Shown here piece after piece: positions 8,466-26,289 of a DNA stretch of 64,000 nucleotides. The stretch lies in the UHGV virus genome UHGV-1372970. One strand, written 5' to 3'. The stretch comes from a virus. Under the pieces are notes generated by a model. The model searched no databases. It was given only the letters and a program-made list of their open reading frames with translations, and was not told where the DNA came from. Numbering within the stretch: the stretch's first letter is position 1; every line of letters begins with the position of its first letter. The position numbers were made by a program, and so were the translations under genes.

Positions 8466-8637
8466 TTTTCATCTCTACTGTCGCCTGAAGACGTTTATTT
8501 TCTTCACGCTGATTTTTAATTTCAGCCGCACGACGAGCAGAGCGACCGCCTAAAATGTATGCCCCAAGGAGTACCGCAATGACGGCCGTAGCCGTCATCA
8601 CGAACGCTTTGACATGGGCGATTAAGCCTTCAATCAT
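8386..8637 (-). CDS. i-spanin (Rz-like): N-terminal transmembrane helix plus coiled coil
   Basis: 83 aa. N-terminal hydrophobic helix ATAVIAVLLGAYILGG followed by a charged coiled-coil segment. Sits directly after the endolysin. Confidence 0.55.
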   Translation of the reverse strand: MIEGLIAHVKAFVMTATAVIAVLLGAYILGGRSARRAAEIKNQREENKRLQATVEMKNEATSKVRRMGDSVVDAELAAHWMRD

Positions 8638-9651: not shown

Positions 9652-9713
9652 TGATAATCCTCCATGACTGTCAAACCCAAATCCACCCGGTTATACCATA
9701 TCCCTTGAATTAA

Positions 9714-9731
9714 AGTAAGTAAATACTTACT
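9714..9731. promoter_or_regulatory. Late-type palindrome AGTAAGTAAATACTTACT upstream of holin
   Basis: Perfect inverted repeat AGTAAGTA/TACTTACT. Member of the recurrent TAAGTA-n-TACTTA family. Confidence 0.45.
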
Positions 9732-9733
9732 AA

Positions 9734-11278
9734 CTACTCAAAATGAACAAATGTGCGTAAATCTCTGTTCTCAGCTCTGAGTTCGCTAATCTCCCGCGAC
9801 AATACCTGGATAGCACTTAAGGCGTCCATCAACAAAGGATTGGAGTCCAGCACAAGTTTTTCAATTATCTCCTGATGTTCTGATTCAATTTCATTACCTT
9901 CATCATCCTTTATGGCTGGGTGGTTTACCACACCTTTACTCACCTTCACGTAGCACGGGTCAATTTTCTGAAGCTGCTGAGCAATCACACCTCGACGCTG
10001 GCGCCCGCTCTCGTCATCGTTATAGATGAAAGTAACTAGTTTCATGGCATTGATATTACTCAACGACTTCATGCCATCTGTGGGCTTAATATCATGCTTG
10101 AGGTTTTTGTCTGAAGTTGCGGCCCACGCTACATCACCTCGCTGACTATTCCAGATCATTCCGTCGCTGCGATGATGCCAGTATTGTACGGGCGCACCAT
10201 ACCCTTTGACTTGGGTAACGAGACGGTGGTTGTTTCCGACATGCTCTTCAAACCAAAAATTCCCCCCTGCCTGACCGTTCGAGTCCGCCCCTATCGTAGC
10301 AAATTGAGTGGTTAATTGCGGAGCAACCCTTATTTCCCCTAAATTCGCAGAGGGATCATTGTCGTACTGTGCTATGATGCCGGCACGACTAGCGGCACGC
10401 ACATATAAATCGGCTTTAATACCCTGCTGAGAGCGAATATTTTTGGCAACTCGAATACTGCACTCGAACCCTAATGCGACCGGGTCATCCGCAATAATTC
10501 GGTGAGTATAGTCTGCCGTGCTATTCCCATAATGGAAGTCGATAAACGGTGTTGTATAGGAAAGCTCAATGCTTCTGGCGCTAACACCTCCATCCGTGAA
10601 GTTGGCGTTTTTCTTACCATTAATATTCCCCAAAATATCAACATCGCCAGAGCTATTAACACCAAATATTTCGGTCTGGACATCTGTAGCAGATATCCGG
10701 TCATTAGCGCTTTTGACAACAGAGAATCGCGTAGATTTCCCGACCATGAGTTTTCCCCATGTTCCGTTTTTCTTAACCAGCCCTATATCAGCGTTCTTGC
10801 CGAGAATAAAACCGGCGTCGTCGCTATCCACACTCTGTGTTCCAGTAAAATTATTCCCACCGGCAATGCTGGCCATCCCTTTAATCGCTGGTACAGTGAC
10901 AGACTTACCCGTCATGGGGTCTGTTAACGTTATATTTCCACTTCCCGTCAATGCCGCTGACCAGCCCTCAACGACACTACGCCAAAGAGAGAACACGCTG
11001 GCGAGTTGATTGGCAAAAGCTGACGTGCTGGCCGTCTCTGACGTGATAATGCCATAGGACGCCCCAGAGAACGCTGTCGTGATGTTTCGGGTAAGCGTCA
11101 GTTGCGTATCACTGTCGACGGATTTAATCGCGTACAAGTCCGCGCCCCCGCTCCGATACACGACAAGAATGGAACCCTGTTGAACGCCAAGAGCTGTCTG
11201 CGACCACTTAGTCGTTACACCGGTCACTTTCGCCTGATTTGCGGCGCCGGTTACGGTGCCTACTTCATACATACTCAT
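9734..11278 (-). CDS. Tail fibre/side fibre with C-terminal S74-type intramolecular chaperone (autoproteolytic) domain
   Basis: 514 aa, beta-rich. C-terminal ...TSDKNLKHDIKP...LVTFIYNDDESGRQRRGVIAQQL...SELRAENRDLR resembles the endosialidase / T5 pb1 C-terminal chaperone domain (Ser-Lys dyad). Lies immediately downstream of the J gene. Confidence 0.65.
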   Translation of the reverse strand: MSMYEVGTVTGAANQAKVTGVTTKWSQTALGVQQGSILVVYRSGGADLYAIKSVDSDTQLTLTRNITTAFSGASYGIITSETASTSAFANQLASVFSLWRSVVEGWSAALTGSGNITLTDPMTGKSVTVPAIKGMASIAGGNNFTGTQSVDSDDAGFILGKNADIGLVKKNGTWGKLMVGKSTRFSVVKSANDRISATDVQTEIFGVNSSGDVDILGNINGKKNANFTDGGVSARSIELSYTTPFIDFHYGNSTADYTHRIIADDPVALGFECSIRVAKNIRSQQGIKADLYVRAASRAGIIAQYDNDPSANLGEIRVAPQLTTQFATIGADSNGQAGGNFWFEEHVGNNHRLVTQVKGYGAPVQYWHHRSDGMIWNSQRGDVAWAATSDKNLKHDIKPTDGMKSLSNINAMKLVTFIYNDDESGRQRRGVIAQQLQKIDPCYVKVSKGVVNHPAIKDDEGNEIESEHQEIIEKLVLDSNPLLMDALSAIQVLSREISELRAENRDLRTFVHFE

Positions 11279-11325
11279 TATCTCTTCCTTGAGATGCCGC
11301 CCACTTCCTGTAGGCGGCTTTAGTT

Positions 11326-14300
11326 TTAGAAAATACCCATTCTCACTCGGAGACGGTTGTTCGAGTCGTAAACTTCAATCTTACCATTGGAGATGGTCGT
11401 TCTGGCACTTCCCGACCCGGTGCCGTTAATCTCCATCGTGCCGTTTTTACCGATCCTCCAACCAGACTGGCCGCTGGAGTAGTTGCTCGACTGAAGATCC
11501 CCTACCTTGGCGTTGGTAATAGAGCCGTCTTTGATGTAAGCCGCGTTCATATAGGTGACGCCATTATCGATAACAAACGGCGTCGTGGTGCTGCCATTCG
11601 CGGTATTGATTAAAGCGAACCTGTCAGCCTGAACTAAGAACTGGCTTTGCAGACTTTTGCCGTCGACACCGAGAGCAATGCCGGCCGCATACTTCTGTCC
11701 CGCGCTGTTCGTTTCCATCTTCACCATCCAGGTACTGTTCAGCGAGTCGTTATTTGAAACGGCTTCCTGAAGTACCTGGATAGATGCGGTCTGGTTATTC
11801 AGAGTCGCGGTCATGTCGGTCTGGCTCTTAGCAACGGCACTCAACTGAGTGGCCTGAGTGGCCTGAGTCGACTTTATGGTTGCCACACTGGTCATAGTGC
11901 TATTCAGATCAGCCTGATTTGCAATGTTGGCCGACGCCTGAGCACTGATCTGAGACTGAAGACTCGTGTTTAAAGACGCCTGTGTGCTCTGGCTGTCAGA
12001 TATGGTCTTAGACAGCTGATCAACCTTCGACGTTGCCCCATCAACCTTCGACTGCATGGAAGACAGTTGCGACGTTTGGGCTGTCACTTTTCCGTCGATG
12101 TCGCTGACCTTCGTCTGCAACGATGAGATTGCCGTTGCGTTTGCATCCGCCGTAGCCTGTGCATCCGCAGCATCAGTGATATCGGTAATGACGAAATCAT
12201 CAATGTACGCCGCGTATCCAGGTGTGTTGGAGCCATTCTGACCACGAGTAGAAACCCATACATGGCTACGGGTTACGCTCGGACCCAGCTTCAGCACGCC
12301 ACTGAACTTGACCCACTGATCGCGTGCGCCAAGGCCTGACTCGTTGAACGTAATGCCCTGCCAATCGTTCGCACCATCTTTGTTGATCGAGTGCAGACCA
12401 ACGGCCACAGACCAGCCAGACGGCGGGGCTTCACTTGCCGGCATCATAGCCCAAAACTCAACGCGATATTTCGCGCTCTGGCGCACCGCAGAATAGGAGC
12501 CGATCGTCTTGTCTGCATTCCCACCAGTATTGGCCGGACGAATAACTTTCAGACATTTGCTGCCGGTGCTCTTGAAGTCCGTCGTTACAACCGCAGTGCT
12601 GCCGCCCAACTGCTGATTGTTGTCATAGGTTTCGAAAGTACCGTCGATCCACGGGTTACTCTGGACCTTCAGCGTATTCAGGCTACTCTTCAGGTCAGTG
12701 ACACTGCCACTCGCAGAAGACAAGTCTTTACCTTGCTGAGTAACCGTGTTCTGCAGTGACTGAAGAGCCGAAGCGTCGGCCTTGCCAGAAACCTTGTTAT
12801 TCAACGAATTAAGGCTATTGCTCAGATTCGTGATACTCCCGGTGTGACTGGAAACAGTACCCTCCGCACTGGTAACTCGCGAAGTCAGACTAGCAACCGC
12901 ATTGCTCGTCGCGTCGATGTTCACTATGTCAGTGATATCGATGAAGTAAAAATCATCGAAATACTGATTACCTGATTTTAGGGACGAGTTGATAGAGACA
13001 CCAACACTGCCAGATACCGTCGCCTTCCAAGTCCCGGAAATCTCCTTCCAGGTCGAGTCAGTGGGAAGGTCTGCCGGCTTAAACTGGAAGTCAACGAGCA
13101 GAGACGAGTTGCCGATACGCAGTTTGTTATTGCCCTGATTATCGACAACGGAGCCAGACTGACAGCGAGCAAACACGCCGATTTTGTAGGTGCGATCTTT
13201 CGTCACTACGATGCTTTGGGAGACTGCCCCCGTACCGGTCCCACATGACAGGATCTTACTTCCCGAATTTGGAGACTGAGCATTAATAACCGTAATGAAT
13301 GAAGCGCCGCCACCGAAGCCTTCCAGACCGCGCTCAAACGATGAGTTGGTCAGAAGGTTTCCAATGATTTTTTTCGACGCGTCGCTGTCCGCAACCAGAT
13401 TGGCAAGTCCGGTATTCGTGGCACTCAGGCTGTTCTGCAGGTTGGTGACATTACCGCTCTGCGTGGAAATATCCTTACCTTGCTGCGTTACCGTGTTCTG
13501 CAGTGACTGAAGCGCAGTTGCGTCAGCTTTCTTGCCGATGTTGCTGTTCGCTGTTGCCAGTCCATTCTGGAGACTCGTGATTGCGCTACTGGACGAGGTA
13601 ATATCTTTACCTTGCTGCGTTACCGTGTTCTGGAGTGTGGTAATCGCCGATGCGTTTGCATCTGCTTTCATCATCACGCCACCAGCTGCCCCAAGCCCCA
13701 TCATTACGCCGTTCACGAACTCAACAGAGGTCGAGACAAATGCGCTCTGATCACTACCAGTAGGCGAACGAAGCTCCAGACCGTCACCTGCCTTCATGCC
13801 CTTACGGCCAAGCAGGATGTAGGCGCCGCGATAAGGCAGCGAGGCGAGAACCTCACTCGTTCCGCCGAGTAACTCAATAGCGGCATAAACACTTGAGCGA
13901 GATCCCGTAGGCTCATCGTATGTCATTACACACGCATAGACACCGTTGGCCAGCGCTGCAATGTCATCCGACATTGTTTTGCCGTTATTGGCAGAACCAA
14001 AAACGTCATACGTCTTGCTGGTGTCGATGGAAGTCGAACCATCGCTATTTGCTTTAAACGTTACCAGCGCATAGCTACGGCCAGGGGCAAACACTTTTAC
14101 CCCGGACTCGTCAAAAATCCCGTCCTTCGCGCTGGATCCATTCCCTCTAGAAGTAATGGTAAACACTGTGCGACGAGTCAGAGACGCCTGAAGAGATGTC
14201 ACATTGGCATTCGATGCAGTAATGTCTTTACCCTGCTGGGTTACGGTATTCTGCAGCGTTTGCAATGCGGAAGCATCCGCCTTTTTGCTTACGTTTGCGT

Positions 14301-17300
14301 TGGTCGTGTTCAGACTATTTTCGAGGCTGGTGGTCCTCGTTCCCTGCGAGGTAATATCCTTGCCTTGCTGCGTTACGGTATTTTGCAACGTCTGCAACGC
14401 GGAGGCATCAGCCTTTTTGGAAACGTTCGAGTTCGTTGTGTTCAGGCTATTTTGCAGACTGGTCAACGCCGTTCCCTGTGATGAAACAGTCCCTTCAACA
14501 TTACTCACTCGTGAAGTCACTGACTGAATCGAAGAGCTGTTTGCCGCAACAGTGGTCTGCAACGAAGACAGATCGGCAGAAGCAGCGAGGTCAGTCGGGG
14601 CCGGGGACCATTCAGTAGGCATGTTGCCTACTTCCATCTTCGGAGCGCTAACATAAACTGTCTGATCAGCCGTCGTCGATGCCTCTATACGAGCAATGAT
14701 CAGTCGTTTTGCGCCAGTGCCCGGTTTCTGCTTCCACTTGACCCAATAACGAACCCATTCAGTTGTCAGAGTGAATACAGCACGGCCATCAGTATTTGAA
14801 GCCTTAACGCCCTGGCTGGTTTCAGAGGATCCCGTCGTGTTCGGGTTATAGAAGAATGCCGTCATTGACTGTCCATCTACACCACCTTTTGCATAGAAGC
14901 TGTAGACATACTCTGCATTATCGACAGGCGCATCGATACTGACCTCCTTGAGATCTCTATATGAGCCGCCGGCTTTAATCGTCGCACCACTTACCGCATT
15001 GCCGCGGAAAGTCTCACTAATCTTACTGCCCCAACCATCCATGGTGCCAGACAGTGAAATAAGGTTTGTCCCGCCAACGGAAACATTGCTCAGCGAGTTG
15101 GAAAGATTGGTCAGACTGTCGCTTTGGGTCGACAGATCTTTCCCCTGCTGGGTTACGGTATTCTGTAACGTTTGCAATGCAGAAGCGTCAGCCTTTTTGC
15201 CGATATTGGTATTGGCGGTGCTTAACCCGTTTTCAAGAGCGGTCGCACGAGCACTAACGCTGCTAACGTCTTTACCCTGCTGCGTAACCGTTGATGTCAG
15301 CGAGTCGACGGCTTTCGATGTCGCGTCAGCGGTGCTTTGCGCTGCCGCAGCCGCAGTGATGTTGCGCATGTGCCAGTCAGTCACGTACCAGACTGTACCA
15401 AACGGGCTGGACTGGTTTATTTGCAGGAACGGACGGAGGTACCCTTTGTCCGCGGCAGACTGCGGGACAGTCACCTTCCATGTAACTCGTTTCCAGGTCG
15501 ATGTCGTCTTAGTATTCCCACCAGTGTAGAGAGGGCTTGCAATTCCACCTGTTGGCCCGTTGGCGGTACCAATGTAGAGGTTGAAGTCAGCTGAACCCGC
15601 TCCACATGCCACCAGCGCAGAAATTTCAAATACATCACCAACTGTCGCAACAATCGTGTTGAAATTCGGGTGGTGGTCGCGAGCAGCCAGTTTCGCCGCG
15701 TATTTGAATGGACATCCAGCTGGCACACCGTCAGAGTCCGTAGAAACGACAGTAAAGCCCATACTGTCATACTGAACATCAAACGTTGGGTTAGGGACCA
15801 GCTCGCCGCTTGTCGCGTTACCGGCGCGAATTGCAGCATTCAGAGATTTCACACTGCTGTTCGTCGCTGTGATATCGCTTTCGGTCTTAGTCACACGCCC
15901 TGTCAGAGAGTCGACGGCGGACTGTTCAGCTTTCTTCGCAACTTTGGCATCAGTAGAGCTGAGACTATTCTTCAGGCTTGTGATGCTATCGCCCTGGCTG
16001 GTTAGCGCGTTACCTTGTTGGGTCACTGTATTTTTCAGTGAGGTCATTGCGCTGGCCTGTGCGTCGATCGCTTTCTCGTTCGTGACATCGACAAGGAAAA
16101 CATCATCGAGATAGAGATATCCTGCACTCAGGCTCGCTCGCAGAGAAATTAGCAATGTGACATCTGCTGCAGGCGTGTACTCACTGCTGACCATCCCCCA
16201 ACCGGTACTAACGCCATTTACGGAGATAAACAGATCCTGAACCGGGCCAGAGTCAGTCCTGATGCTAATTTTGGTGTTGTTTGTATTGGAAATCGCCATA
16301 TCGCTAGATTTGCGAACCCACGCACCAAACCGGTATGTCTTTCCAGCTTTCAGAGAGATGGACTGATCGCAAGAGAGATCACCGGACGCCAACTTTGACG
16401 CCTGAATGATATAGCTCCCAGACTTCGGTGCTTGCGCGGCCAAAGTGGTCCACCCGGTGTTATTCCATCCATCAAACCAACGCTCAAAAGAGTTATTTTT
16501 GAGCATGTTACCCGGATTAACTTTCGAGGCGTCGGCATCAGCATTGGCGCTGTTCAGTGAATTATTAAGCTGAGTCAGGCTATCACTTTGGCTTAACACT
16601 TTGCCTTCAGTTGAGCTAACACGACTAGCCAGACTGCTTACTGTCGACGCATCGGCTTTCTTCGCAACATTGCTGTTTGTCGTATCGAGTGACGATTTCA
16701 GACTGGTGATATTGCTGTTGGCGGCAGTAATATCCTTGCCTTGCTGTGTAACCGTGTTTTGCAACGCCTGCAGCGCAGAGGACTCAGCCTTTTTACTCAC
16801 ATTGGCGTTGGTGGTGCTCAAGTCGTTTTGCAACTTGGTCACAGCAGCGCCCTGGGATGTGATATCAGTACCGTTCTTTTCAACGGTAGAGTTCAGTGTC
16901 TGAATCGCAGACGCGTTGGCGTCGGACAGCTCCTGAGTATTGTAGGCGTCGGTCACTTCCGTGAGCACAATGTTGTCAATCAGGAACGAATCACCGGCTT
17001 TAACCGTTGATACGTTCGGCACTGAAATTCGAGCCATAGCCTGCTTTACGCCGCTCTTGGTCAGCTTAAGATAGCCAGAGACTTTAGTCCATGATGTCGC
17101 GGAAAGGTCTTTTACTGCCTTTGTCAGCGATGGCCATTGCCAGGAGTCATCCTGATACTGAACAGACAGACCGACAGTGATTTGGGTGTTCGCGGCCATA
17201 TTCGCTTTATTCGCGTCAAGCTTCACCCAATATTCGAGATAGAAGACTGCATTATCTCTGACCTGGAAACTGCCGAAGATATGGTTGTCGCTGTTATCTG

Positions 17301-20300
17301 TAGAATTAGGGTTGTAGTCATTCGGGCGAGTAACTCGAATGCACTTGCCACCACCCTGCGCGTCATCCGTGGTGACGATTACGCGGTTGTTCGACAGATT
17401 ATAGCCATTGCTATAACTCTCAAATGTCCCATCAGGCAAAATGTTGGCGCCACGCTTTGACTGCTGATTCAGAGAGCTATTGAGAGATGTAATCGCGTCA
17501 CTATTGCTTGAGACCCCATTCTCCGTATTGGTCACGCGAGTGGTCAGCCCATTAAGCGCCGTCGTGTCCGCTTTCTTAGCAACGTCGCCTTTGACGGTAT
17601 TGACAGTATTATTCAGGGTTGTGAGTGAACTACCCTGGCTGGTCAGCGTCTTGCCCTGCTCTACGACCGTATTCTGCAACGTCTGCAACGCAGAAGCGTC
17701 TGCCTTCTTCGACACGTCGGTCTTCGTAGACGTCAGGTCGTTCTGTAGCTTAGTGATCGACGTTCCCTGAGAACTAATCGTGTCACCTTGCTTGGTCACT
17801 TTCGTGGACAGATCGCTCAACGCGCTGGCCGTCGCATCATTATTGACTGCGTCAGTAATATCGAACACTTGGAATGAATCGATCCAGATTTCCGCATTAC
17901 TTGGATGGCAGTAGATGCCAAAGGCCTGGCCATCCGCACCAGTGCTCGGGGAGAAGGGTGTATCCCATGTGATAGTCTGCCAGTCGCTCGTCAGCGTGAC
18001 GTTTTTATCTTCGTAATTACCCTCGACAGACCCGTTAAAGTTCCAGCGGCGCAGAAGCATGTTCATCGAGCCTGAAACACCCTTGGCGCGAACGATATAG
18101 CGGAATTTGCGAGAACCATTTACCGGGACAGGTTTTTTACGGTTAGCAAAAAGCCCCGGAGATGTAGAGTTCACTCTGACCATGCGGACGCCGGAGGAAT
18201 TTTCACCATAGGCGCCAAATTCTACGAGGCTTCCGGTCGGGACACTGTTCTTCTGAGTGCCAAATGCTGAGCCGTCACCGATGAGATCAGCATCCTGAAC
18301 CAGATTATCGCCCATGTTCAGCATGGCATTGACGTTGTTGTTCAGGCTAGTAATAGAATCGCCGGCTGAACTGATGTCCTTACCCTGCTGTGTAACGGTA
18401 TTTTGAAGCGATGACAGCGCGGCTGCGTCAGCCTTCTTAGCTACATTTGCGTCGGTCGTCTTGAGGCTGTTCTCAAGGCTAGTGGCACGGCTACCAACAC
18501 TGGTCAGATCCTTGCCTTGCTGGGTTACGGTATTCTGCAGCGATGATAAAGCTGTGGCATCCGCTTTCTTTGCAACGTTGGCATTGGTGGTGCTCAGGTT
18601 GTTCTGCAGGCTTGTAATGCTGCTTGAGGCTGAAGCAATGTCTTTGCCCTGCTGGGTAACCGTATTTTGCAGTGTCTGGAGAGCTGCGGCGTCCGCTTTT
18701 TTCGCGACGTTCGCGTTGGTCGTGTCCAGATTGTTTTTCAGATCCGTAATGCTGGTGGACTGCGACGCAATGTCTTTACCCTGCTGGGTTACGGTATTCT
18801 GAATAGATGACAACGCAGATGCATTGGCGTCGATATTGACGCTATCTGTCACATCGATGACATAGAAATCATCAAAGTAGCGGTTTCCTGCCGTCAGATA
18901 GTTGTTAAGCGTCACCGGCAAACTAGCCGTCTCGGTCGCCTTCCAGCGTCGGCTGAATTTAGTCCAGTCACCGGATACGCCGGTAAATGGCAACTCGAAC
19001 ACCGGATTGCCGGCGCTGCTGCCTACACGGAGTTTGTTATTTCCACTGCCATTATCCGTCGTGCCTGAAATCTGCTTAACCCATACCCCGATCTCATAAG
19101 TGCGGTCTTTGACGAAATCAATATTCTGACCCGGCGCGATGCTGCCCGGATCGATCTTCAATGCGCGAGTACCAGTATGCGGGGATTGAACCTCAACAAC
19201 CGTGCTCTTAGAGCCAACGCCGATATACCCATCAAATCCACGCTCAAAAGATGGGTTTACAATAAGGTTGTTTGGAGTCTTCGCAGAAGCATCAGAATCG
19301 GCAATTGCGTTACTCAGTGAGTTATTCAGCTGGACGATGCTGTCTGCCTGACTGGACACCTTGCCCTCGGTTGCGCTAACACGAGATGTCAGATCATTGA
19401 CCGCCGTCGCGTCGGCTTTCTTCGCAACATTGCTGTTTGTCGTATCAAGAGACGTTTTGAGGTTAGTGATACTGCTATTCGCGGCGGAAATATCTTTACC
19501 CTGTTGCGTCACTGTTCCCTGCAGTGCGGTCAGCGCTGTCTGGTCGGCCTTTTTACCAACATTGGCGTTGGTGGTGCTCAGGTCATTTTGCAGTTTGGTG
19601 ATCGACTGACCCTGGGTGGATATATTCGAACCCTGTTGATCCACTGACGTCTTCAGAGTCTGCAATGCAGAAGCGTCAGCTTTACCCTTCAGCGAAGATT
19701 TAAGACCAGTGATATCCGACGCCATCGCGCTGTCCTGAGTGTTCAGGGTGTCGAGCGACTTGTTGATGTTGGAAACGCTGTCGTTAACTTTCGTTTCAAG
19801 AGACTGACGGGCCGCTGCTTCTGCTTTATCAGCAGTCACGCGAGCCTGTTGCTCCTGGAAAATCAGACCAGAGCCGACTTTAGCCAGGTCACTCCCTTCG
19901 TAAGACCCGCGCATCTGGACAGCCAGAGTGTTTCGGCTCGCAGCTTCAGCAGCATCAGCGTCAACACGAGCGGCCTTTTCTTCCTGCAGAGCGGCCATGC
20001 CAGCGCCAGGGGTCGGGCGACCTACCGCAATCCAGTCAATCAGAAGATAGTTAGCATCATTCTGACCTTTCAAAAAATCGAGACGGAGACGGCGAATGGT
20101 CGTGGAGGAACGCCAGTCGATGTCGTGGAGAGACAGCGTGGCAATGCCATTTGCATCATACTCAGGCTCATCGAAAGAGATAGAACGCGAATCGGACCAC
20201 CCCTGCTCAGACGCACCAATCCAGTACAACTTACCAGCCCATACTGGATTACCGACCTTCTTAATACGCAGTTTGATGAAGCGATAAGCGTTAGCGTCAA

Positions 20301-23300
20301 TGGCCATGTTGTTCGGCGAACGGCACGAAGATGTGCTGTTCGCGGACTTCAGCCAGCCATCGCTGGTCACGTTCATCGGCACGCTACTGCCATCGTCTTC
20401 AGTCCAGCCTTCGTTATTGGTATCGAAATACCAGATGTTCAGACTATCAAATTGCTCACCGGTGCCGGCCGCGATCTGAGAGATCTGTTGCGCCATCGAC
20501 TCATTCGCTGTCTGCATTTGAGTGGAGAGATTACTAATCTCAGACTGGCGGTTGTTTTTCTCCTGCAACAACCCATCAGCTCGAGCGCGAGCCTCGCTTT
20601 CCATGTCCGCAATTCGACTTGATGTTTCAGCCGTGATGGCATTTGCCGTCTTCGTATCCAGAGTAGAAACGGCGGTCGCTCGGTCGCTGACTTCTTTCTC
20701 GATTTTGGCATTGAGAGAGGTAGCGGAGTCGCTAATAGCTTTAGCTCGGTTACTAGCCTCAACTGCTACAGAGTCAGAAATGGCAGAGGCGCGGGCAATG
20801 GCCTCATCAGACACCGCTTTAGCTCGCGCTGAGGCCTCGTCTGAAATTGCTTTGTTACGAGCGTCAGCCTCACCAGAGATTGCAGCAGCGCGGGCGGTTG
20901 CTTCGTCTGAAACAGCCTTAATCCTTGCAGACGTCTCATTAGAAACAGCCTGAGCACGTTTACTGGCCTCGTCCGCCACTGCACTTGCTCGATCCGTTAT
21001 CTCTTTGTTGATCGCGGAGTTCAGCGTTTTTTTCGCATCACTGATCGCATTGGCGGACTCAGTACGAGCGTCATTAACCTGGGAAGTTGCCTGGCTTTTG
21101 GCTTCGTCGATTGCGGCGTCAACCTCAACGGCAACAGCCTTGCTGTCTATGTCAGCAATCAGATCCTTGCCCAGCTCTGACTCCGTGATTTTGTTCTTCA
21201 GGAACGAAAGTACATCACGCGTCGTTGCGGTTGTTGCAAGAGACGAGTTTAGAGCGCTGAGCATCCCGCGTTTGTTGGCTGCGCGTACCCAATAATACCA
21301 GGTGGCAGAATCTTCAAGACCGTTATGGCTAAACGTCGTCCCGCTAACTTTTGCGATGACCTGAGCTTTTGCCTTATCGTTAATCTTGGACGCCAGCACC
21401 TCAATGTGGTCTAAGTCCACAGAAGACGGGTTGATCCAATTCAAAACGATTGAACGGTAGTCGCCTACAGCGGTCAAGCCAGTAGGTGCAGCTGGAGCTG
21501 ACAGTGTGCCAAGCACTTTGTAGGTGATGCTGATAGGATCAGTCTTCCTGCCCCCAACGGAAACAGCGTACACCTGAAAATCGTACTGCCCGTCTTCAGC
21601 GACATCACGGAGTTCGAATTGCTCTTCAGTGACGCGCTGGGATTGCCAGTTAGAAACGTTACCAGCGTCAGAGCGGCGCCAGCTGACATAATACTGTGCT
21701 GATTTCCCCTGCCACGCGGCAGTTAACGATACGGACAAGTTGCCCGGAGAAGACAGGTAAGTACCTTCTGTCACTGTCAGACCGGACGGCTTTGAGAAAG
21801 TCGGATCGAGGACAGTTGTATTTTGCGGGATCAGCTGTGCGCCGTTGTCGATGGCTTCGTATTTGGTCGGATTGTTCTGGATGGCCGTAATGTTAAACGA
21901 CGTCCCGTCCGTGCCTTCAGCAACGCTCACGACGCGTGCCTGAAGCGGAACCAGATCAGGTTGTGCGATTACCCATACAGCATCAGCAACGGGCGTTTCT
22001 GCCGATGTGAGGGCGGTTTTAAACGTCACAGTGGAAACATTCTTACCATTTTCCAGAATGTCACGCTCAACCATCTTACCCTCTGAACTCAGGAAGGTGA
22101 TGTGATTTCCGACGGACGTCAAATCTACAGGCGAATCCAGCTTAACGCTGTTAGCAGTATATCCAGTGATTCGGCCGCTGTTGCGTCTTCCAGCACGGAA
22201 TTTATCAGCGATAAGAACCACATCACCAGGCATCAGGAATACTGAATCCATGCCTACAGAGTAAGTGATAACATCGGACTCCATGCGGGACGTGTAAAGC
22301 GTCCAGAGACCAACACGGTGAGCCTGGCCCCGTGAAGTACAACCAAAGGCGACGGATTCGGTTTTACGGATGCCGTATCGCTTAATTGCCTCCTGGTCTT
22401 CAACGTACTCTACACTTTGCTTGTAGCCATCTTCCTTGTTGTTGTAGGTGATGAGTGCAACGGAATAGCGGTCTTTTCGGGCCGAGCCTTTGTAGACGAA
22501 AGAGCCGTTAACCACGTTGCTGTTAGAGAACAGCATCACCGGGTCAGCTGGGGAATCCTGCGTGACGTGAACCATGCCACCAGCCCAATAAACCATGCCA
22601 CGGAATGCCCCTGCGATGTCCTGCACGACGCGATAAGCATCTTGGCGACTGGTAATCTGGGTGTTGATAGCGAAACGCTTCTCTTGGCTACCGAAGCCAT
22701 CATCAACGAACGCATCACAGTAGCGGCCGATCTGATACAACTCGCCAATGTTTATCATTGACTCTTTAACGAACTCGCCTAAGCCATAACGGGTATTCGT
22801 TAACAGGTCAAAAAGGATCCATGCCGGGTTAGAAGTTGATGCCAGCTTAAACGTGCCATCCCAATTGCCGTCGTAGGTATTGGTGTCAGCGTTGTAGTTT
22901 GACGGTACGCGGATCTTCATACCTTTAATCAGGTATGAACGAGTCGGCATAGACGAGCCGAATTGCTCTGAGTTGATTTTCAGGCCAGCCAGAACAGAGT
23001 TCGGATAGTTCAGGCTGGTGTTGACGATTTCACCAATAGAATCGATGTAGGTGTCGTCGTACAAATAGCTGTCGTCTTTATGGTCTTCGGTCAGACGAAT
23101 TGCACGCAACGTGTAGGATTTGGCCGGCTTCGGCAAATCAAACACATAGCTGCGGTAATAAACGCCTGTCTTTTTGGCGGTCAAAGTAATGATCGACGCG
23201 TCTTCGCCTTCGGCTATCGCATCAACAAAACCTTTTCCATTTCCCGAATCAATCTGGAATTTGTACTGAACGGTTGTGCCGTTTGTATCTCCGTTTTTCT

Positions 23301-23760
23301 TGTCGATTTTGCGAAGTGACGGGAATTTCATAACAACGCGAACACGATCGCTGTCAGCGGAGTCCAGAGAAACGTTAACCTGGCTCGTTTGCTTCAGCTG
23401 CATCCCAACCGACTTTGGCGTCTCGATGAAGTCGAAGCCATCGATAACAGTCTGATCCTGAGAGCCGTCCCGGAACCACCAGGTCACACCGCTGAAGTTA
23501 TAGGAACCGTCAGCGTTCTGAAGCGGCGTGTCGTTCAGGAAAATGGATTTCGCACCATCAACCAGACCACCGACAACACCCTCCCCCAATAAATCCAGTA
23601 CAGAAGCCATAGCACGGCTATTTACCGTGTCATTGGCCTCTACTGGCGTTCTTGCGCTACCGCCTCCTTTACTTCCACCACGGCCTGAGATAATCAGACC
23701 ATGAGCGACGAGTTGAGAAAGACGGGATTTTTTAAAAACTGAAGCTTCCATGCATCCCAC
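11326..23760 (-). CDS. Giant lambda-J-like central tail fibre / host specificity protein (4144 aa) with inserted repeat array of coiled-coil plus CBM-like modules
   Basis: N-terminal approx 1000 aa and C-terminal approx 250 aa match lambda gpJ landmarks (e.g. ...KNKITESELGKDL..., ...QFLVQADRFALINTANG...) and an FN3 region. The middle contains at least 8 repeats of ...LQTLQNTVTQQGKDI...TTNANVAKKADA... alternating with roughly 200-aa modules NPSFERGFDG...YFDDFYVIDVTD (CBM4/9-like). Confidence 0.9.
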   Translation of the reverse strand: MGCMEASVFKKSRLSQLVAHGLIISGRGGSKGGGSARTPVEANDTVNSRAMASVLDLLGEGVVGGLVDGAKSIFLNDTPLQNADGSYNFSGVTWWFRDGSQDQTVIDGFDFIETPKSVGMQLKQTSQVNVSLDSADSDRVRVVMKFPSLRKIDKKNGDTNGTTVQYKFQIDSGNGKGFVDAIAEGEDASIITLTAKKTGVYYRSYVFDLPKPAKSYTLRAIRLTEDHKDDSYLYDDTYIDSIGEIVNTSLNYPNSVLAGLKINSEQFGSSMPTRSYLIKGMKIRVPSNYNADTNTYDGNWDGTFKLASTSNPAWILFDLLTNTRYGLGEFVKESMINIGELYQIGRYCDAFVDDGFGSQEKRFAINTQITSRQDAYRVVQDIAGAFRGMVYWAGGMVHVTQDSPADPVMLFSNSNVVNGSFVYKGSARKDRYSVALITYNNKEDGYKQSVEYVEDQEAIKRYGIRKTESVAFGCTSRGQAHRVGLWTLYTSRMESDVITYSVGMDSVFLMPGDVVLIADKFRAGRRNSGRITGYTANSVKLDSPVDLTSVGNHITFLSSEGKMVERDILENGKNVSTVTFKTALTSAETPVADAVWVIAQPDLVPLQARVVSVAEGTDGTSFNITAIQNNPTKYEAIDNGAQLIPQNTTVLDPTFSKPSGLTVTEGTYLSSPGNLSVSLTAAWQGKSAQYYVSWRRSDAGNVSNWQSQRVTEEQFELRDVAEDGQYDFQVYAVSVGGRKTDPISITYKVLGTLSAPAAPTGLTAVGDYRSIVLNWINPSSVDLDHIEVLASKINDKAKAQVIAKVSGTTFSHNGLEDSATWYYWVRAANKRGMLSALNSSLATTATTRDVLSFLKNKITESELGKDLIADIDSKAVAVEVDAAIDEAKSQATSQVNDARTESANAISDAKKTLNSAINKEITDRASAVADEASKRAQAVSNETSARIKAVSDEATARAAAISGEADARNKAISDEASARAKAVSDEAIARASAISDSVAVEASNRAKAISDSATSLNAKIEKEVSDRATAVSTLDTKTANAITAETSSRIADMESEARARADGLLQEKNNRQSEISNLSTQMQTANESMAQQISQIAAGTGEQFDSLNIWYFDTNNEGWTEDDGSSVPMNVTSDGWLKSANSTSSCRSPNNMAIDANAYRFIKLRIKKVGNPVWAGKLYWIGASEQGWSDSRSISFDEPEYDANGIATLSLHDIDWRSSTTIRRLRLDFLKGQNDANYLLIDWIAVGRPTPGAGMAALQEEKAARVDADAAEAASRNTLAVQMRGSYEGSDLAKVGSGLIFQEQQARVTADKAEAAARQSLETKVNDSVSNINKSLDTLNTQDSAMASDITGLKSSLKGKADASALQTLKTSVDQQGSNISTQGQSITKLQNDLSTTNANVGKKADQTALTALQGTVTQQGKDISAANSSITNLKTSLDTTNSNVAKKADATAVNDLTSRVSATEGKVSSQADSIVQLNNSLSNAIADSDASAKTPNNLIVNPSFERGFDGYIGVGSKSTVVEVQSPHTGTRALKIDPGSIAPGQNIDFVKDRTYEIGVWVKQISGTTDNGSGNNKLRVGSSAGNPVFELPFTGVSGDWTKFSRRWKATETASLPVTLNNYLTAGNRYFDDFYVIDVTDSVNIDANASALSSIQNTVTQQGKDIASQSTSITDLKNNLDTTNANVAKKADAAALQTLQNTVTQQGKDIASASSSITSLQNNLSTTNANVAKKADATALSSLQNTVTQQGKDLTSVGSRATSLENSLKTTDANVAKKADAAALSSLQNTVTQQGKDISSAGDSITSLNNNVNAMLNMGDNLVQDADLIGDGSAFGTQKNSVPTGSLVEFGAYGENSSGVRMVRVNSTSPGLFANRKKPVPVNGSRKFRYIVRAKGVSGSMNMLLRRWNFNGSVEGNYEDKNVTLTSDWQTITWDTPFSPSTGADGQAFGIYCHPSNAEIWIDSFQVFDITDAVNNDATASALSDLSTKVTKQGDTISSQGTSITKLQNDLTSTKTDVSKKADASALQTLQNTVVEQGKTLTSQGSSLTTLNNTVNTVKGDVAKKADTTALNGLTTRVTNTENGVSSNSDAITSLNSSLNQQSKRGANILPDGTFESYSNGYNLSNNRVIVTTDDAQGGGKCIRVTRPNDYNPNSTDNSDNHIFGSFQVRDNAVFYLEYWVKLDANKANMAANTQITVGLSVQYQDDSWQWPSLTKAVKDLSATSWTKVSGYLKLTKSGVKQAMARISVPNVSTVKAGDSFLIDNIVLTEVTDAYNTQELSDANASAIQTLNSTVEKNGTDITSQGAAVTKLQNDLSTTNANVSKKAESSALQALQNTVTQQGKDITAANSNITSLKSSLDTTNSNVAKKADASTVSSLASRVSSTEGKVLSQSDSLTQLNNSLNSANADADASKVNPGNMLKNNSFERWFDGWNNTGWTTLAAQAPKSGSYIIQASKLASGDLSCDQSISLKAGKTYRFGAWVRKSSDMAISNTNNTKISIRTDSGPVQDLFISVNGVSTGWGMVSSEYTPAADVTLLISLRASLSAGYLYLDDVFLVDVTNEKAIDAQASAMTSLKNTVTQQGNALTSQGDSITSLKNSLSSTDAKVAKKAEQSAVDSLTGRVTKTESDITATNSSVKSLNAAIRAGNATSGELVPNPTFDVQYDSMGFTVVSTDSDGVPAGCPFKYAAKLAARDHHPNFNTIVATVGDVFEISALVACGAGSADFNLYIGTANGPTGGIASPLYTGGNTKTTSTWKRVTWKVTVPQSAADKGYLRPFLQINQSSPFGTVWYVTDWHMRNITAAAAAQSTADATSKAVDSLTSTVTQQGKDVSSVSARATALENGLSTANTNIGKKADASALQTLQNTVTQQGKDLSTQSDSLTNLSNSLSNVSVGGTNLISLSGTMDGWGSKISETFRGNAVSGATIKAGGSYRDLKEVSIDAPVDNAEYVYSFYAKGGVDGQSMTAFFYNPNTTGSSETSQGVKASNTDGRAVFTLTTEWVRYWVKWKQKPGTGAKRLIIARIEASTTADQTVYVSAPKMEVGNMPTEWSPAPTDLAASADLSSLQTTVAANSSSIQSVTSRVSNVEGTVSSQGTALTSLQNSLNTTNSNVSKKADASALQTLQNTVTQQGKDITSQGTRTTSLENSLNTTNANVSKKADASALQTLQNTVTQQGKDITASNANVTSLQASLTRRTVFTITSRGNGSSAKDGIFDESGVKVFAPGRSYALVTFKANSDGSTSIDTSKTYDVFGSANNGKTMSDDIAALANGVYACVMTYDEPTGSRSSVYAAIELLGGTSEVLASLPYRGAYILLGRKGMKAGDGLELRSPTGSDQSAFVSTSVEFVNGVMMGLGAAGGVMMKADANASAITTLQNTVTQQGKDITSSSSAITSLQNGLATANSNIGKKADATALQSLQNTVTQQGKDISTQSGNVTNLQNSLSATNTGLANLVADSDASKKIIGNLLTNSSFERGLEGFGGGASFITVINAQSPNSGSKILSCGTGTGAVSQSIVVTKDRTYKIGVFARCQSGSVVDNQGNNKLRIGNSSLLVDFQFKPADLPTDSTWKEISGTWKATVSGSVGVSINSSLKSGNQYFDDFYFIDITDIVNIDATSNAVASLTSRVTSAEGTVSSHTGSITNLSNSLNSLNNKVSGKADASALQSLQNTVTQQGKDLSSASGSVTDLKSSLNTLKVQSNPWIDGTFETYDNNQQLGGSTAVVTTDFKSTGSKCLKVIRPANTGGNADKTIGSYSAVRQSAKYRVEFWAMMPASEAPPSGWSVAVGLHSINKDGANDWQGITFNESGLGARDQWVKFSGVLKLGPSVTRSHVWVSTRGQNGSNTPGYAAYIDDFVITDITDAADAQATADANATAISSLQTKVSDIDGKVTAQTSQLSSMQSKVDGATSKVDQLSKTISDSQSTQASLNTSLQSQISAQASANIANQADLNSTMTSVATIKSTQATQATQLSAVAKSQTDMTATLNNQTASIQVLQEAVSNNDSLNSTWMVKMETNSAGQKYAAGIALGVDGKSLQSQFLVQADRFALINTANGSTTTPFVIDNGVTYMNAAYIKDGSITNAKVGDLQSSNYSSGQSGWRIGKNGTMEINGTGSGSARTTISNGKIEVYDSNNRLRVRMGIF

Positions 23761-23762: not shown

Positions 23763-24374
23763 TTAAATCTGGTCAATCGTGATAGAGGAACTTGCGATCT
23801 GAGAACCAACGAGAATTTCTTCGCCGTAGTTCAGCTGGACCGGGTTTCCTTGGTTAGTTGTGTTTTGTGGCCCGTCGAAATAGAACGAGTCGGAGTTATC
23901 CGCCTGTCTTACTTCCGGGTTTTTGGCTTGAGGCGAGAGGATTTGGGCAAGGCCACCCATCATCAAACTCATACCGGCGCCGATTAGCGCTGTTGATGTG
24001 CCAGCAGTAATCCCCGAGGCTAATGCGCCAACGGCAACCATCACCGCGCCTACCACGACCTGCACATAGCCAAGAGCGTTCCCGCCTCGTCCTTTCGGGA
24101 TAGGTGTAATGCGGATCTTCTCAACGTCTTTACTCGCGCCGCGCATCATGTATTCGGTTTCGTCAACCGACCATGTGACGCCGCTTTTAGTGGTGATCTG
24201 AACGTGATAGCGGTCGTAGGCATTAGCGTTGCGACGAATCCAGGCGCCAAGGCCCGGCTTATTTGCGTCAATCAGATTGATGGCTTGCGCGGCATTGGAC
24301 GCGCGAAGATGCCAGTGACGGCCGAAACGCTTTGCCAGCGCTCCGCCGAGCTGAACATGAACTAATTCAGACAT
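23763..24374 (-). CDS. Tail assembly protein I-like
   Basis: Position between K and J. Size 203 aa, with a C-terminal hydrophobic/Gly-rich region as in lambda gpI. Confidence 0.65.
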   Translation of the reverse strand: MSELVHVQLGGALAKRFGRHWHLRASNAAQAINLIDANKPGLGAWIRRNANAYDRYHVQITTKSGVTWSVDETEYMMRGASKDVEKIRITPIPKGRGGNALGYVQVVVGAVMVAVGALASGITAGTSTALIGAGMSLMMGGLAQILSPQAKNPEVRQADNSDSFYFDGPQNTTNQGNPVQLNYGEEILVGSQIASSSITIDQI

Positions 24375-25195
24375 TTTTCATTCCCTGTTAATAACGCCTG
24401 ATGGCGCAAATGATGCGTCGTATTTTTCTGATACATGCCGCCGTAGGTGGCGTGGCCACTTAAACGGTCAATCTGGTGATGCAGGATCCGGTTGTCACCG
24501 ACATAAACAGCGCAGTGATCTGGCATCTTTCCGTACTGGATAAAGAAGATGTCGCCTTTCCGCGGCTCTTCCCTAGGCGCCAGGCGGACGAGATTTTCGT
24601 TGCGATAATTCAGATCGAGAATGTCTTCGTCGCCCAGATACCATGACGGAATATGCAGGTGGGCATTGGCATTAATCTCGACGTCGAACTCTCGCTTCAG
24701 GTAGTCACGACACAGCATCCAGCAATCGAAAATGCCAAAGACATAAGGGCGACCGGTGTACGGCATCTCGAAACCACCCGGCGTAATTACTTCCATCTCG
24801 CTTAAACGGAACTCGGCCTCAATGTCCGGGTTCAGGTTCTTTGTGACGGAAAGAATTAGCCATGGCAGTTCAGTCGCTTCGCAGCCGGCACGATCAGCGT
24901 CCGAGGGATTCGGGGAACGGTCAGTGTGGCTATGCCAGATTGCAACAACCTCACCTTCGTCTTCAGCAGCAATCACATCTTCGTGATGCATAACGAACTC
25001 ATTGACCGGGTCTTCAGAGACGTTTCTCGCTTCAATAAAGCGATACTTTTTCTCCGTCGTCTGGACAATGAAACCGCACGCTTCATTCGGGTAACGGGCA
25101 ATTGCGCACTGATACAGCGACTGCGTGAACAGTGAGCCGCCGATCGATTCAATATCACGAAACACGAGTGGCCCCCGGAAACCCGCCAAACGCAA
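24362..25195 (-). CDS. Tail tip assembly protein K-like (MPN/JAB plus NlpC/P60 domains)
   Basis: JAB/MPN motif ...VVAIWHSHTDRSPNPSDAD...; C-terminal NlpC/P60-like Cys/His region. Between L and I. Confidence 0.75.
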   Translation of the reverse strand: MRLAGFRGPLVFRDIESIGGSLFTQSLYQCAIARYPNEACGFIVQTTEKKYRFIEARNVSEDPVNEFVMHHEDVIAAEDEGEVVAIWHSHTDRSPNPSDADRAGCEATELPWLILSVTKNLNPDIEAEFRLSEMEVITPGGFEMPYTGRPYVFGIFDCWMLCRDYLKREFDVEINANAHLHIPSWYLGDEDILDLNYRNENLVRLAPREEPRKGDIFFIQYGKMPDHCAVYVGDNRILHHQIDRLSGHATYGGMYQKNTTHHLRHQALLTGNEKCLN

Positions 25196-25859
25196 TCACC
25201 CCGTTGGCAAAGAAGTTCTTCCTTGCCTTGCACGCATCCAGTCGCTTAGTGCAGTAGTCGTCGCTCAACTTAGAGGTTTGATTGTTGTCCTTGTCGAAAT
25301 ACGGACCGCTGTACCCACACTCCGCGCCACGATAATTCCACGGGCAGCTGTTTTTGATGATCTGACGCGCGGGCAGCTGAACCCCCATCAGGTCAAAAAC
25401 ACTGGATAGCTCAAATTCAACGCTCTCTTTGGTTTCTAACGTCTTCTGTTCCACGAACCATATTTCGTCCGGGAAGTGCTGAGAGGCGTCGGCGGTGGGG
25501 TTTCCAGCAGTAAAGTTAGAAGCATCAAGAAAACGCACCAGCGTGCGCCGGCGAGTGATGGTGCAACCAACCAGATCATCATTTGCGAGAACTTCGGCCG
25601 AGATTGCGCCCCCATAGTTAGAGACAACAAGCTTCGGTCGGGGCAATGTCCCGGAGCCTGTTTTATCGAAACCGCTGGCTTTAATCGGCCACGGCTTATA
25701 CTCGACCCCCTGCCAGATTACAGACGTGCCGAGTTTGTTCGTTCCTGCGTGGAAGAAGCTCTTCCCGCCTGAAGTTGTCACGGCCATATCAAGCTCAAAA
25801 AGCTCGATAACCGCGGAGGGTGACAACCCTTGAATTTCCGTGCGAATACTCATACTCAT
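25155..25859 (-). CDS. Minor tail protein L-like (tail tip)
   Basis: Strong similarity to the lambda gpL pattern ...VIWQGVEYKPWPIKASGFDKTGSGTLPRPKLVVSN..., plus Cys-rich C-terminus. Confidence 0.85.
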   Translation of the reverse strand: MSMSIRTEIQGLSPSAVIELFELDMAVTTSGGKSFFHAGTNKLGTSVIWQGVEYKPWPIKASGFDKTGSGTLPRPKLVVSNYGGAISAEVLANDDLVGCTITRRRTLVRFLDASNFTAGNPTADASQHFPDEIWFVEQKTLETKESVEFELSSVFDLMGVQLPARQIIKNSCPWNYRGAECGYSGPYFDKDNNQTSKLSDDYCTKRLDACKARKNFFANGVIAFGGFPGATRVS

Positions 25860-25888
25860 CCTTGAGTGCGAAACAAAACCTTATATTA

Positions 25889-25908
25889 ATAAGTAAACAC
25901 TTACTTAT
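25889..25908. promoter_or_regulatory. Late-type palindrome ATAAGTAAACACTTACTTAT between M stop and L start
   Basis: Inverted repeat ATAAGTAA/TTACTTAT. Overlaps the gpM stop codon, 30 nt upstream of the gpL start. Confidence 0.4.
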
Positions 25909-26243
25909 CAAGCCTCAAAAACTTGTCTAAGGGTACAAGTGATCTCCAAGTACCCTGGATACCGCTTAACAGTATGGGAATCACACACGCAGATAATTTT
26001 TTTATTGCGGGGTGTTGTCCAGAAGAACGACTCTACCGCCCCTCGCGCCATCAAGAAATCGTCAATGGCATTGCCGATCGCGTAAGGCTGTCGGAAGGTC
26101 AGAGACCATTCTTCTTTTATGCGGTTTAAACCCTGTGACTGGCGCTGCTCGTAGTCGTCGCCAAATTTCAGGACAGTAACTTCAGGCTTTATGGTTTTCT
26201 CAGACTCGAAGTCAGGGAACCAGGTGAATGTTTGTCTAGCCAT
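25908..26243 (-). CDS. Minor tail protein M-like
   Basis: 111 aa. Position between tape measure and L. Confidence 0.7.
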   Translation of the reverse strand: MARQTFTWFPDFESEKTIKPEVTVLKFGDDYEQRQSQGLNRIKEEWSLTFRQPYAIGNAIDDFLMARGAVESFFWTTPRNKKIICVCDSHTVKRYPGYLEITCTLRQVFEA

Positions 26244-26289
26244 TTCTCTTCCTTGAGAAACTGCCTACGTCCTGTAGGCAGTATTTTTG

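Follow-up and report, generated by a model that had tools for sequence, protein, structure and literature searches.

Ten putative lectin-type modules on a giant J-type central tail fibre predicted in an SSU5-like Klebsiella phage-plasmid

Why should a phage tail-tip protein for which lambda uses 1132 residues extend over 4144? The question is raised by a 64,000-nucleotide (nt) stretch of virus genome UHGV-1372970, the whole of which is here called the window, where one uninterrupted open reading frame (ORF; 11326..23760, minus strand) encodes 4144 amino acids (aa) counted from a GTG codon. The original prediction, made from the sequence alone, took its product for a central fibre resembling lambda J with a long repetitive insertion, a description that is right in outline and wrong in detail. 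Here we propose, with a probability of about 0.6, that the product of this gene, the giant J, would form a segmented trimeric rod carrying ten tiers of lectin-type modules, which would bind capsule and allow depolymerase-free capture of Klebsiella.

By homology and gene context, the protein is the tip attachment protein, or central tail fibre (J), of an SSU5-like Klebsiella oxytoca phage-plasmid, because its ends are homologous to a J hub and a J tip, its gene follows the order TMP-M-L-K-I-J (TMP, tape measure protein), and its short homologues lack residues 1102-3851. The N-terminal 870 residues contain FNIII-A_GpJ, Phage-tail_3 and fn3 domains in Pfam (PF24801, 84.5 bits; PF13550, 105.9 bits) and match the solved lambda gpJ, F2-pyocin and other J-like chains at E values of 1e-120 to 1e-144, with lambda gpJ itself (8iyk_J) aligned to residues 31-872 at E 9.6e-130. 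The C-terminal tip matches PF09327 (Phage_Tail_Tip; residues 3995-4124, 135.2 bits) as well as the solved chains 9ze4_N, 8xcj_Z and 8jvm_F, so that J-like N- and C-terminal parts do bracket the array as predicted; both hub and tip are trimeric in all matched solved homologues. The giant J ends 20 residues beyond the PF09327 match, while 8xcj_Z runs on for about 170 residues past its aligned part, so that in the giant J no lambda-type C-terminal LamB receptor-binding domain follows PF09327.

The phages closest to the window are SSU5-like phage-plasmids, and the J proteins of SSU5 (1385 aa) and Cyrano (1575 aa) align solely to residues 1-1101 and 3851-4144. Against these the insertion covers residues ~1102-3851, or ~2750 aa, and against lambda J the hub and tip matches are ~3100 aa apart; the predicted figure of about 3000 aa therefore holds in outline. 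The giant J is the last gene of its cassette, with TMP, Phage_min_tail (M), Phage_tail_L and JAB plus NlpC/P60 (K) genes recognised by Pfam directly upstream; the 203-aa ORF in the gpI position has no Pfam match and carries the RefSeq label 'tail assembly protein'. Megablast returned short pieces of ~75% identity only against phages, and nothing against E. coli genomes. The domain map of the giant J, in protein order with residues counted from the GTG, reads as follows.

11326..23760, minus strand: whole giant J, 4144 aa from GTG.
21811..23760, minus strand: J hub region, residues 1-650 (FNIII-A_GpJ 113-247, Phage-tail_3 370-532).
21181..21810, minus strand: two fibronectin-III-type domains, residues 651-860 (fn3 657-742; weak matches 688-838 and 749-836).
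20479..21180, minus strand: CC1, residues 861-1094, an Ala-rich coiled coil of 11-residue repeats, period 3.67.
19996..20478, minus strand: M0, residues 1095-1255, first inserted module (matches 8gtc_M 489-618, E 2.5e-11).
19681..19995, minus strand: CC2, residues 1256-1360, helical segment before the first 44-aa repeat.
19297..19680, minus strand: linker L1, residues 1361-1488, 3 copies of the 44-aa repeat.
18829..19296, minus strand: M1 (family A), residues 1489-1644, CBM_4_9 41.5 bits (cutoff 25.9), predicted local distance difference test score (pLDDT) ~90.
18304..18828, minus strand: linker L2, residues 1645-1819, 4 copies of the repeat.
17836..18303, minus strand: M2 (family E), residues 1820-1975, beta-sandwich; homologues with PF02018; hhalign probability to family A 46-77%.
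17449..17835, minus strand: linker L3, residues 1976-2104, 3 copies.
16921..17448, minus strand: M3 (family B), residues 2105-2280, CBM_4_9 18.0 bits, below threshold; hhalign to A 95-96%.
16534..16920, minus strand: linker L4, residues 2281-2409, 3 copies.
16063..16533, minus strand: M4 (family A), residues 2410-2566, CBM_4_9 41.8 bits.
15811..16062, minus strand: linker L5, residues 2567-2650, 2 copies.
15331..15810, minus strand: M5 (family F), residues 2651-2810, beta-sandwich; hhalign to A 93-94%.
15064..15330, minus strand: linker L6, residues 2811-2899, 2 copies; modelled helix break at 2857-2858 on K-A-D.
14545..15063, minus strand: M6 (family C), residues 2900-3072, found in 47 of 48 relatives; confident beta-sandwich, unmatched in Pfam and among PDB sequences.
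14158..14544, minus strand: linker L7, residues 3073-3201, 3 copies.
13660..14157, minus strand: M7 (family D), residues 3202-3367, ILEI/PANDER-type, PF15711 38.1 bits (cutoff 27).
13399..13659, minus strand: linker L8, residues 3368-3454, 2 copies.
12904..13398, minus strand: M8 (family A), residues 3455-3619, CBM_4_9 31.1 bits.
12655..12903, minus strand: linker L9, residues 3620-3702, 2 copies.
12157..12654, minus strand: M9 (family B), residues 3703-3868, CBM_4_9 24.6 bits, just below threshold.
11779..12156, minus strand: CC3, residues 3869-3994, heptad coiled coil of period 3.52, common to the short J proteins.
11329..11778, minus strand: tail-tip fibre domain, residues 3995-4144 (PF09327 at 3995-4124).

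The framework of the insertion is a 44-residue linker repeat. A hidden Markov model (HMM) built from 16 repeat copies finds 24 copies in nine groups (3, 4, 3, 3, 2, 2, 3, 2 and 2), and the spacing between occurrences of the motif ...LQNTVTQQGKDI... is always an exact multiple of 44 residues. One module of 155-176 aa (M1-M9) comes after each group, and M0 stands before the first; a linker plus its module spans 244-331 aa (mean 279), not the ~380 aa originally put forward. Hydrophobic periodicity at 44/12 = 3.67 has a power 20.5 standard deviations above shuffles, in keeping with the repetitive array and the heptad-like stretches that had been predicted. At the DNA level, the copies (132-nt units) have diverged as described, being 60-82% identical to each other, with longest exact matches of 33, 30 and 26 nt. 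As a separate observation, the 11-residue repeat of CC1 is AVSDEASARAK-like, of hendecad type, occurs also in the short J proteins of SSU5 and Cyrano, and is very variable among relatives (26-72% identity).

Column by column, over 38 distinct full copies from five proteins, positions 6, 9, 13, 20, 30, 34 and 41 are aliphatic in 100% and position 27 in 82%, so that each 44-mer contains five clean heptads. Column 41 is separated from column 6 of the next copy by nine residues (V-A-K, K-A-D, A-S-A, then L), with K44 and A1 invariant, and the 44-mer is accordingly made up of five heptads and a nine-residue V-x-K-K-A-D-x-x-A step, the K-A-D "nonad". All 15 repeat-to-repeat junctions in the giant J read (V/I)-x-K-K followed across the boundary by A-(D/E), and the module-to-repeat junctions read ...D followed by A-(N/T/Q)-A-S-A. 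The nonad matches a published motif, abc-KAD-efg, in which two extra residues within the heptads cause the three chains of a trimer to cross, forming a 'beta-layer' (Hartmann et al. 2016, PMC4786415), the examples given there being IEN-KAD-KAD-V of OMP100 and, from the tail fibre of a streptococcal prophage, LQQKADKETV. AlphaFold2 monomer models break the helix on A1-D2 at seven of the seven junctions covered, six of them in the M0-M1-M2 model (residues 1360-62, 1405-06, 1449-50, 1689-90, 1733-34 and 1777-78) and one in the M5-linker-M6 model (residues 2857-58), a behaviour that is consistent with beta-layers and not proof of them. We infer that the linkers would form a trimeric alpha/beta coiled coil with 24 beta-layers.

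The modules that the linkers separate are heterogeneous, falling into six sequence families (A-F) plus M0, where at least eight copies of one repeated unit had been claimed; this internal comparison used tiled queries, BLASTP of the giant J against itself giving the self-match only. The NPSFERGFDG-type start attributed to every module occurs in three, and the YFDDFYVIDVTD-type end in five only. At the Pfam gathering cutoffs of 25.9 bits for CBM_4_9 (PF02018; CBM, carbohydrate-binding module) and 27 bits for ILEI/PANDER (PF15711), the three family A modules (M1, M4 and M8, 30-41% mutually identical) pass as CBM_4_9, M9 and M3 score below the cutoff, and M0, M2, M5, M6 and M7 have no CBM_4_9 match. 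Families B (M3, M9) and F (M5) are linked to A by hhalign at the high probabilities given above; for family E (M2) that link is marginal, and its 55%-identical homologues carry PF02018. Family D (M7) passes the ILEI/PANDER cutoff and matches FAM3C and FAM3A weakly in a profile search of the PDB (E 0.16-0.45). The match of the M0 profile lies in the megatron of roseophage R4C, of which residues 482-629 are labelled 'carbohydrate-binding' (PMC10276861). M6 (family C) has no Pfam match and nothing significant in the profile search against PDB sequences. The tally is seven CBM4/9/16/22-like modules, one ILEI-like, one like the carbohydrate-binding domain (CBD) of the megatron and one orphan beta-sandwich; as to the CBM4/9/22-like signature originally predicted, three of the ten pass the Pfam threshold, and the other members of the seven are CBM-like in profile or fold only.

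Structure models extend this picture. In the M5-linker-M6 AlphaFold model (mean pLDDT 88.9) both modules are beta-sandwiches, and the best fold matches are a tandem CBM22 (4xup, E 4e-8), CBM4-2, CBM16, the CBM-like BppA of phage Tuc2009 and the central fibre of mycobacteriophage Douge. The M0-M1-M2 model (mean pLDDT 71; M1 ~90, M2 70-89, M0 45-84) matches CBM16-1 (2zew) in Foldseek at a template modelling (TM) score of 0.73-0.76 and 24-25% identity, and also CBM61, CBM4-2, a porphyran CBM (8xmz, TM 0.80) and CBM-like domains of Klebsiella phage Kp7 gp52 and a K2 tailspike; such matches apply to a multi-module model as a whole, the search output not specifying the query domain. As modelled, the fold of M1, M2, M5 and M6 can be taken as settled: beta-sandwiches superposable on solved CBMs, in line with the folding originally expected. 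No catalytic beta-helix or other glycanase or depolymerase domain was found by Pfam in the giant J, its modules or the downstream fibre. A depolymerase or tailspike reading was rejected, there being no such Pfam family and the downstream fibre showing an S74 chaperone domain only.

Genes of this kind are widespread, and their lengths vary with the array. The pJN2-26 homologue (gp75) has 4045 aa, complete Klebsiella plasmids carry versions of 3480, 4297 and 4494 aa, and 43 IMG/VR contigs have open J frames of 2,954 to at least 5,050 aa. The longest member seen, L027 (IMGVR_UViG_3300045988_137065, locus 2-15152), has at least 5050 codons, 33 linker repeats and at least 11 modules, its frame running beyond the fetched locus at the 5' end. 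A second lineage consists of N15/phiKO2-like telomere phage-plasmids, namely KpLi5 (gp20, 3792 aa), phiKO2 (gp21, 3433 aa, 21 repeats) and NAR688 (a J frame open for 4310 codons, 26 repeats). The distribution is better gauged by an exhaustive search with one linker than by a scan with the family C alignment and its very strict patterns: of the 450 representative clusters that the former returned, 231 lie at E≤1e-10 and the bulk are proteins of 2000-4800 aa, with as many as 16 stretches matched; the latter gave a single partial relative, in Tatumella. Two distant members that were sampled have J hub and tip domains, one of the two being confirmed in M-L-K-I-J context. A 174-aa fragment (P0101) that is 76% identical to M0 and labelled Caviibacter abscessus, a fusobacterium, lies on a 524-bp contig and is most likely Klebsiella phage-plasmid DNA contaminating that assembly.

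Among about 50 relatives the strings of modules differ, and the 358 modules cluster into ten families. The window reads M0, then A E B A F C D A B; RHBSTW-00636 reads A E B H C F J D A B; and an N15-like relative (L034) reads H F A H B C D, the final B module in such labels sitting beyond the last linker. Identity is unevenly spread along the proteins. One relative (L014) has a hub 70% identical to that of the window, but L8, M8, L9 and M9 are 97, 90, 98 and 89% identical, and the N15-like lineage has 37% identity in the hub and 38% in the tip but 61-75% in the modules. In the family C module, the N15-like lineage and the SSU5-like RHB30-C05 differ at 2 of 160 residues, and the sole high-identity DNA tract between their J genes (1374 nt, 94.8%) begins at a repeat boundary inside one linker, covers modules C and D and stops at residue 3 of a linker further on. 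Because this tract ends inside linkers, it points to cassette exchange with linker endpoints between SSU5-like and N15/phiKO2-like elements. Comparison of the sequences shows, on this evidence, that modules are exchanged as cassettes by recombination within linkers among relatives. Between the window gene and three relatives megablast found no exchange tract of ≥93%, and the apparent mosaicism of the window copy rests on protein identities only.

From these elements a working mechanism can be put together. The inserted rod lies between the hub (residues 1-860) and the tip (residues 3869-4144), and three J chains would join in one segmented trimeric coiled coil of ~220 nm, about the length of the tail: the 1498 residues of CC1, CC2, the nine linkers and CC3, at 0.148 nm each, give ~222 nm, and the 1507-aa tape measure protein predicts a tail of ~226 nm. 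The rod would show ten tiers of three lectin-type domains, binding capsule or another surface polysaccharide reversibly and multivalently, so that a phage without a recognisable depolymerase could take hold of encapsulated Klebsiella and move its tip down to the outer membrane; glycan or capsule specificity would then be set by the string of modules. Precedents exist. Domains with CBM folds in the Douge central fibre bind host glycans experimentally (PMC13033339), and temperate Klebsiella phages are capsule-type specific and capsule-dependent without recognisable depolymerases (de Sousa et al. 2020, PMC7784688), two of the prophages in that study having ~4200-aa homologues of gp21. The long beaded central fibre with lectin-like domains that was originally envisaged is supported by the J homology, the coiled-coil linkers and the CBM4/16/22-type beta-sandwiches of the confident models.

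Several points weigh against this proposal. The ~220-nm fibre is arithmetic from residue counts, the trimer state and beta-layers are deduced from sequence and monomer models, and glycan binding by the modules is argued from fold and from the precedents of Douge and the R4C megatron. Cry and Vip3 protoxin domains are among the top fold matches, the CBM jelly-roll also serving non-glycan roles; the M0 model has the low confidence noted above; and M6 is without a sequence relative of known function in Pfam or the PDB profile search. Finally, virions of a phage encoding such a J have been imaged for NAR688 only, and the description given, 'a central tail spike and multiple long tail fibers' (PMC12042878), does not obviously correspond to a single very long central fibre.

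The alternative that survives best, though we consider it unlikely, is that the rod provides passive reach, a spacer that brings the J tip, or a receptor-binding protein attached to the tip, across the capsule, with modules that are knobs or hinges binding no sugar. The generic nature of jelly-roll folds, with non-lectin Cry and Vip3 domains among the matches, and the three modules of ten that pass the CBM_4_9 threshold would suit this view, as would linkers whose length changes in whole repeats, as expected of a rod tuned for length. It fits less well with the keeping of ten modules of seven or more families and their exchange at 61-75% identity on backbones of 37%; because modules are exchanged at higher identity than backbones, selection appears to act on the modules and not on length. 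The closest single-domain fold matches, moreover, are true CBMs (22-25% identity), and the domain that M0 matches, part of a solved phage hub, is labelled as carbohydrate-binding.

The segmented central rod would also have to be given up if the J chains, or J and other fibres, were splayed into several long fibres, an arrangement that we judge quite improbable. In its favour, NAR688 itself encodes one of the giant J frames, with its 4310 codons and 26 repeats. The K-A-D nonad, by contrast, makes beta-layers specifically in trimers (PMC4786415), single chains would expose the clean heptad core, and the matched solved J hubs and tips are all trimeric.

Far less probable still is that the gene is an assembly artefact, in the form of a mis-assembled array, or a decaying pseudogene in a plasmid-locked defective prophage. 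What speaks for it is that, in databases, the relatives are mostly 'partial' proteins on draft-genome contigs of 0.7-2 kb from Klebsiella (P0001-P0097), and that short-read assemblies systematically break inside the gene. Two further records match 84-89% of the giant J, one interrupted by the record origin and one by a transposon. The latter, K. oxytoca pCAV1335-118 (L005; NZ_CP011616.1, locus 4010-18085), carries in its J, near residue 3700, an ISPa38 transposon of the Tn3 family with other cargo, which cuts the gene; this phage-plasmid copy probably yields no infectious virions, yet persists as a plasmid. The artefact part of this alternative was rejected because two independent complete K. 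oxytoca plasmids (~111 kb) carry the same 12.4-kb ORF over 100% of its length at 99.9% and 99.7% identity, which also answers the concern over read support raised with the original prediction. As to decay, dozens of complete elements, plasmids and phages among them, have intact homologues of 2,950 to at least 5,050 aa, the 231 representative clusters match at E≤1e-10, and virions of NAR688, which has such a J, infect new hosts (PMC12042878). The start of the frame is a smaller matter: RefSeq begins the protein at an in-frame ATG three codons after the GTG (23749-23751; 4141 aa, WP_053003253.1, 'phage tail protein'), which is probably the real start. In the same region (23749-23760, minus strand) the stop codon of the I-like gene lies 2 nt ahead of the GTG.

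That J is a molecular ruler fixing a virion dimension by its length, as the original prediction had entertained, can practically be dismissed despite the closeness of the ~222-nm rod to the ~226-nm tail, since a separate ORF upstream (26290-30813) encodes a tape measure protein of the canonical kind, 1507 aa long and with both a TMP_3 and a lambda TMP C-terminal domain, Pfam finds no such domain in the giant J, J length ranges from 2,950 to at least 5,050 aa among close relatives, and the N15-like lineage pairs a tape measure protein of ~1120 aa with a J of 3400-4300 aa.

The giant J belongs to a known but uncharacterised family, noted before and never dissected. It forms a PHROG (phrog_2589), phiKO2 gp21 has been on record since 2004 as a sequence, and members appeared in print in 2020 and 2025 as a '~4200-aa gp21 homologue' and a '4234-aa baseplate hub protein' (PMC7784688, PMC12115436). 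Papers on phage-plasmids, pJN2-26 and a Yersinia telomere phage do not mention the giant J, and the literature searched, with the 2004 phiKO2 paper outside its coverage, holds no description of the 44-residue repeat, the K-A-D beta-layer motif, the module families or cross-lineage exchange. Like the window protein, phiKO2 gp21, pJN2-26 gp75, KpLi5 gp20 and the NAR688 J have the hub, the 44-aa K-A-D repeats, modules of the same families and a Phage_Tail_Tip end; the window protein differs in its own module string, with only 45-54% identity to pJN2-26 and a phiKO2-type backbone at 37%.

Outside the family, likeness is partial. Lambda gpJ (8iyk, 8xcj) has a homologous hub, FNIII (E 1e-130) and tip domain within the same TMP-M-L-K-I-J cassette, whereas the window protein has the ~3100 extra residues between hub and tip and is without the LamB-binding domain. 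The Douge central fibre gp20 (8zdp) matches both models in fold (E 1.7e-7 and 2.6e-9) but has 763-878 aa and few domains, is separate from the hub, lacks the 44-aa repeat and serves a Gram-positive-type host. The CBD of the R4C megatron (8gtc_M), although homologous to M0, is inserted in the hub periphery, whereas M0 heads the fibre insertion. Gram-positive siphophages carry CBM-type modules on tail-tip proteins (Tuc2009 BppA, PblB, 'evolved' Dit/Tal), BppA being a PDB fold match, and in a viral structure library the module-helix-module unit is matched by PblB, by a vB_AbaM_ME3 protein and, at 28% identity over 458 columns, by a tail protein of Acinetobacter phage XC38, so that giant tail proteins of Acinetobacter and Gram-positive phages have similar layouts; these Gram-positive and Acinetobacter devices use other carriers and linkers, and usually one to three modules against ten per chain. 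Trimeric autotransporter adhesins alternate coiled-coil stalks with globular binding heads. OMP100, other such stalks and the S. pyogenes prophage hyaluronidase 2C3F have the same a-b-c-K-A-D-e-f-g nonad within heptads, and the giant J differs from the known beta-layer coiled coils in having it, as known from sequence, 24 times at strict 44-residue spacing in a phage J.

The neighbouring genes of the tail region are the following.

23763..30813, minus strand: upstream tail-tip cassette (TMP, M, L, K, 203-aa ORF).
26290-30813, minus strand: tape measure protein, 1507 aa, TMP_3 and Tape_meas_lam_C domains.
25908-26243, minus strand: M.
25155-25859, minus strand: L.
24362-25195, minus strand: K, JAB plus NlpC/P60.
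23763-24374, minus strand: 203-aa ORF in the gpI position, RefSeq 'tail assembly protein'.
9734..11278, minus strand: downstream 514-aa side tail fibre with a C-terminal Peptidase_S74 / T5 pb1-type intramolecular chaperone.

In the downstream fibre the chaperone domain (residues 380-507) is the one recognisable part; the first 380 residues, which have no match in Pfam or among PDB sequences, presumably form the attachment and receptor-binding parts. Elsewhere in the window (7028-7823, plus strand), a 172-aa GNAT acetyltransferase gene comes after a 90-aa ORF, the two arranged like an acetyltransferase toxin-antitoxin pair and flanked by the lysis genes on one side and parA on the other. The equivalent site holds a 395-aa HEPN-domain gene in pCAV1099-111 and a KacT-type toxin pair in phage Cyrano, and looks like a variable accessory-gene slot; because the HEPN-domain gene replaces the pair there, the window is not identical to pCAV1099-111. 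A 561-aa protein with a DUF4942 domain (56801-58486, minus strand) is encoded among the replication and accessory genes of the plasmid part.

What besides depolymerases sets the capsule specificity of temperate Klebsiella phages is an open question in the literature (PMC7784688), and a giant J with ten exchangeable lectin-type modules offers a concrete, testable candidate for depolymerase-independent capsule recognition. Temperate Klebsiella phages and phage-plasmids, of which some carry resistance genes, depend on the capsule and its type for infection, yet seldom encode a recognisable depolymerase. The strict 44-residue repeat predicts a measurable 'bar code' of bead spacings along the fibre. 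On the practical side, the diversity of the giant J is under-represented in draft data because short-read assemblies break in the gene. A bolder extension, possible although we hold it to be doubtful, is that the module string is the missing determinant of capsule-type specificity, displayed in ten tiers along a ~220-nm trimeric alpha/beta coiled coil that would serve as a depolymerase-independent 'grappling line' through the capsule, and that linker-mediated exchange of modules is general; if this is true, exchange between the unrelated SSU5-like and N15-like families would be a general mechanism of host-range switching.

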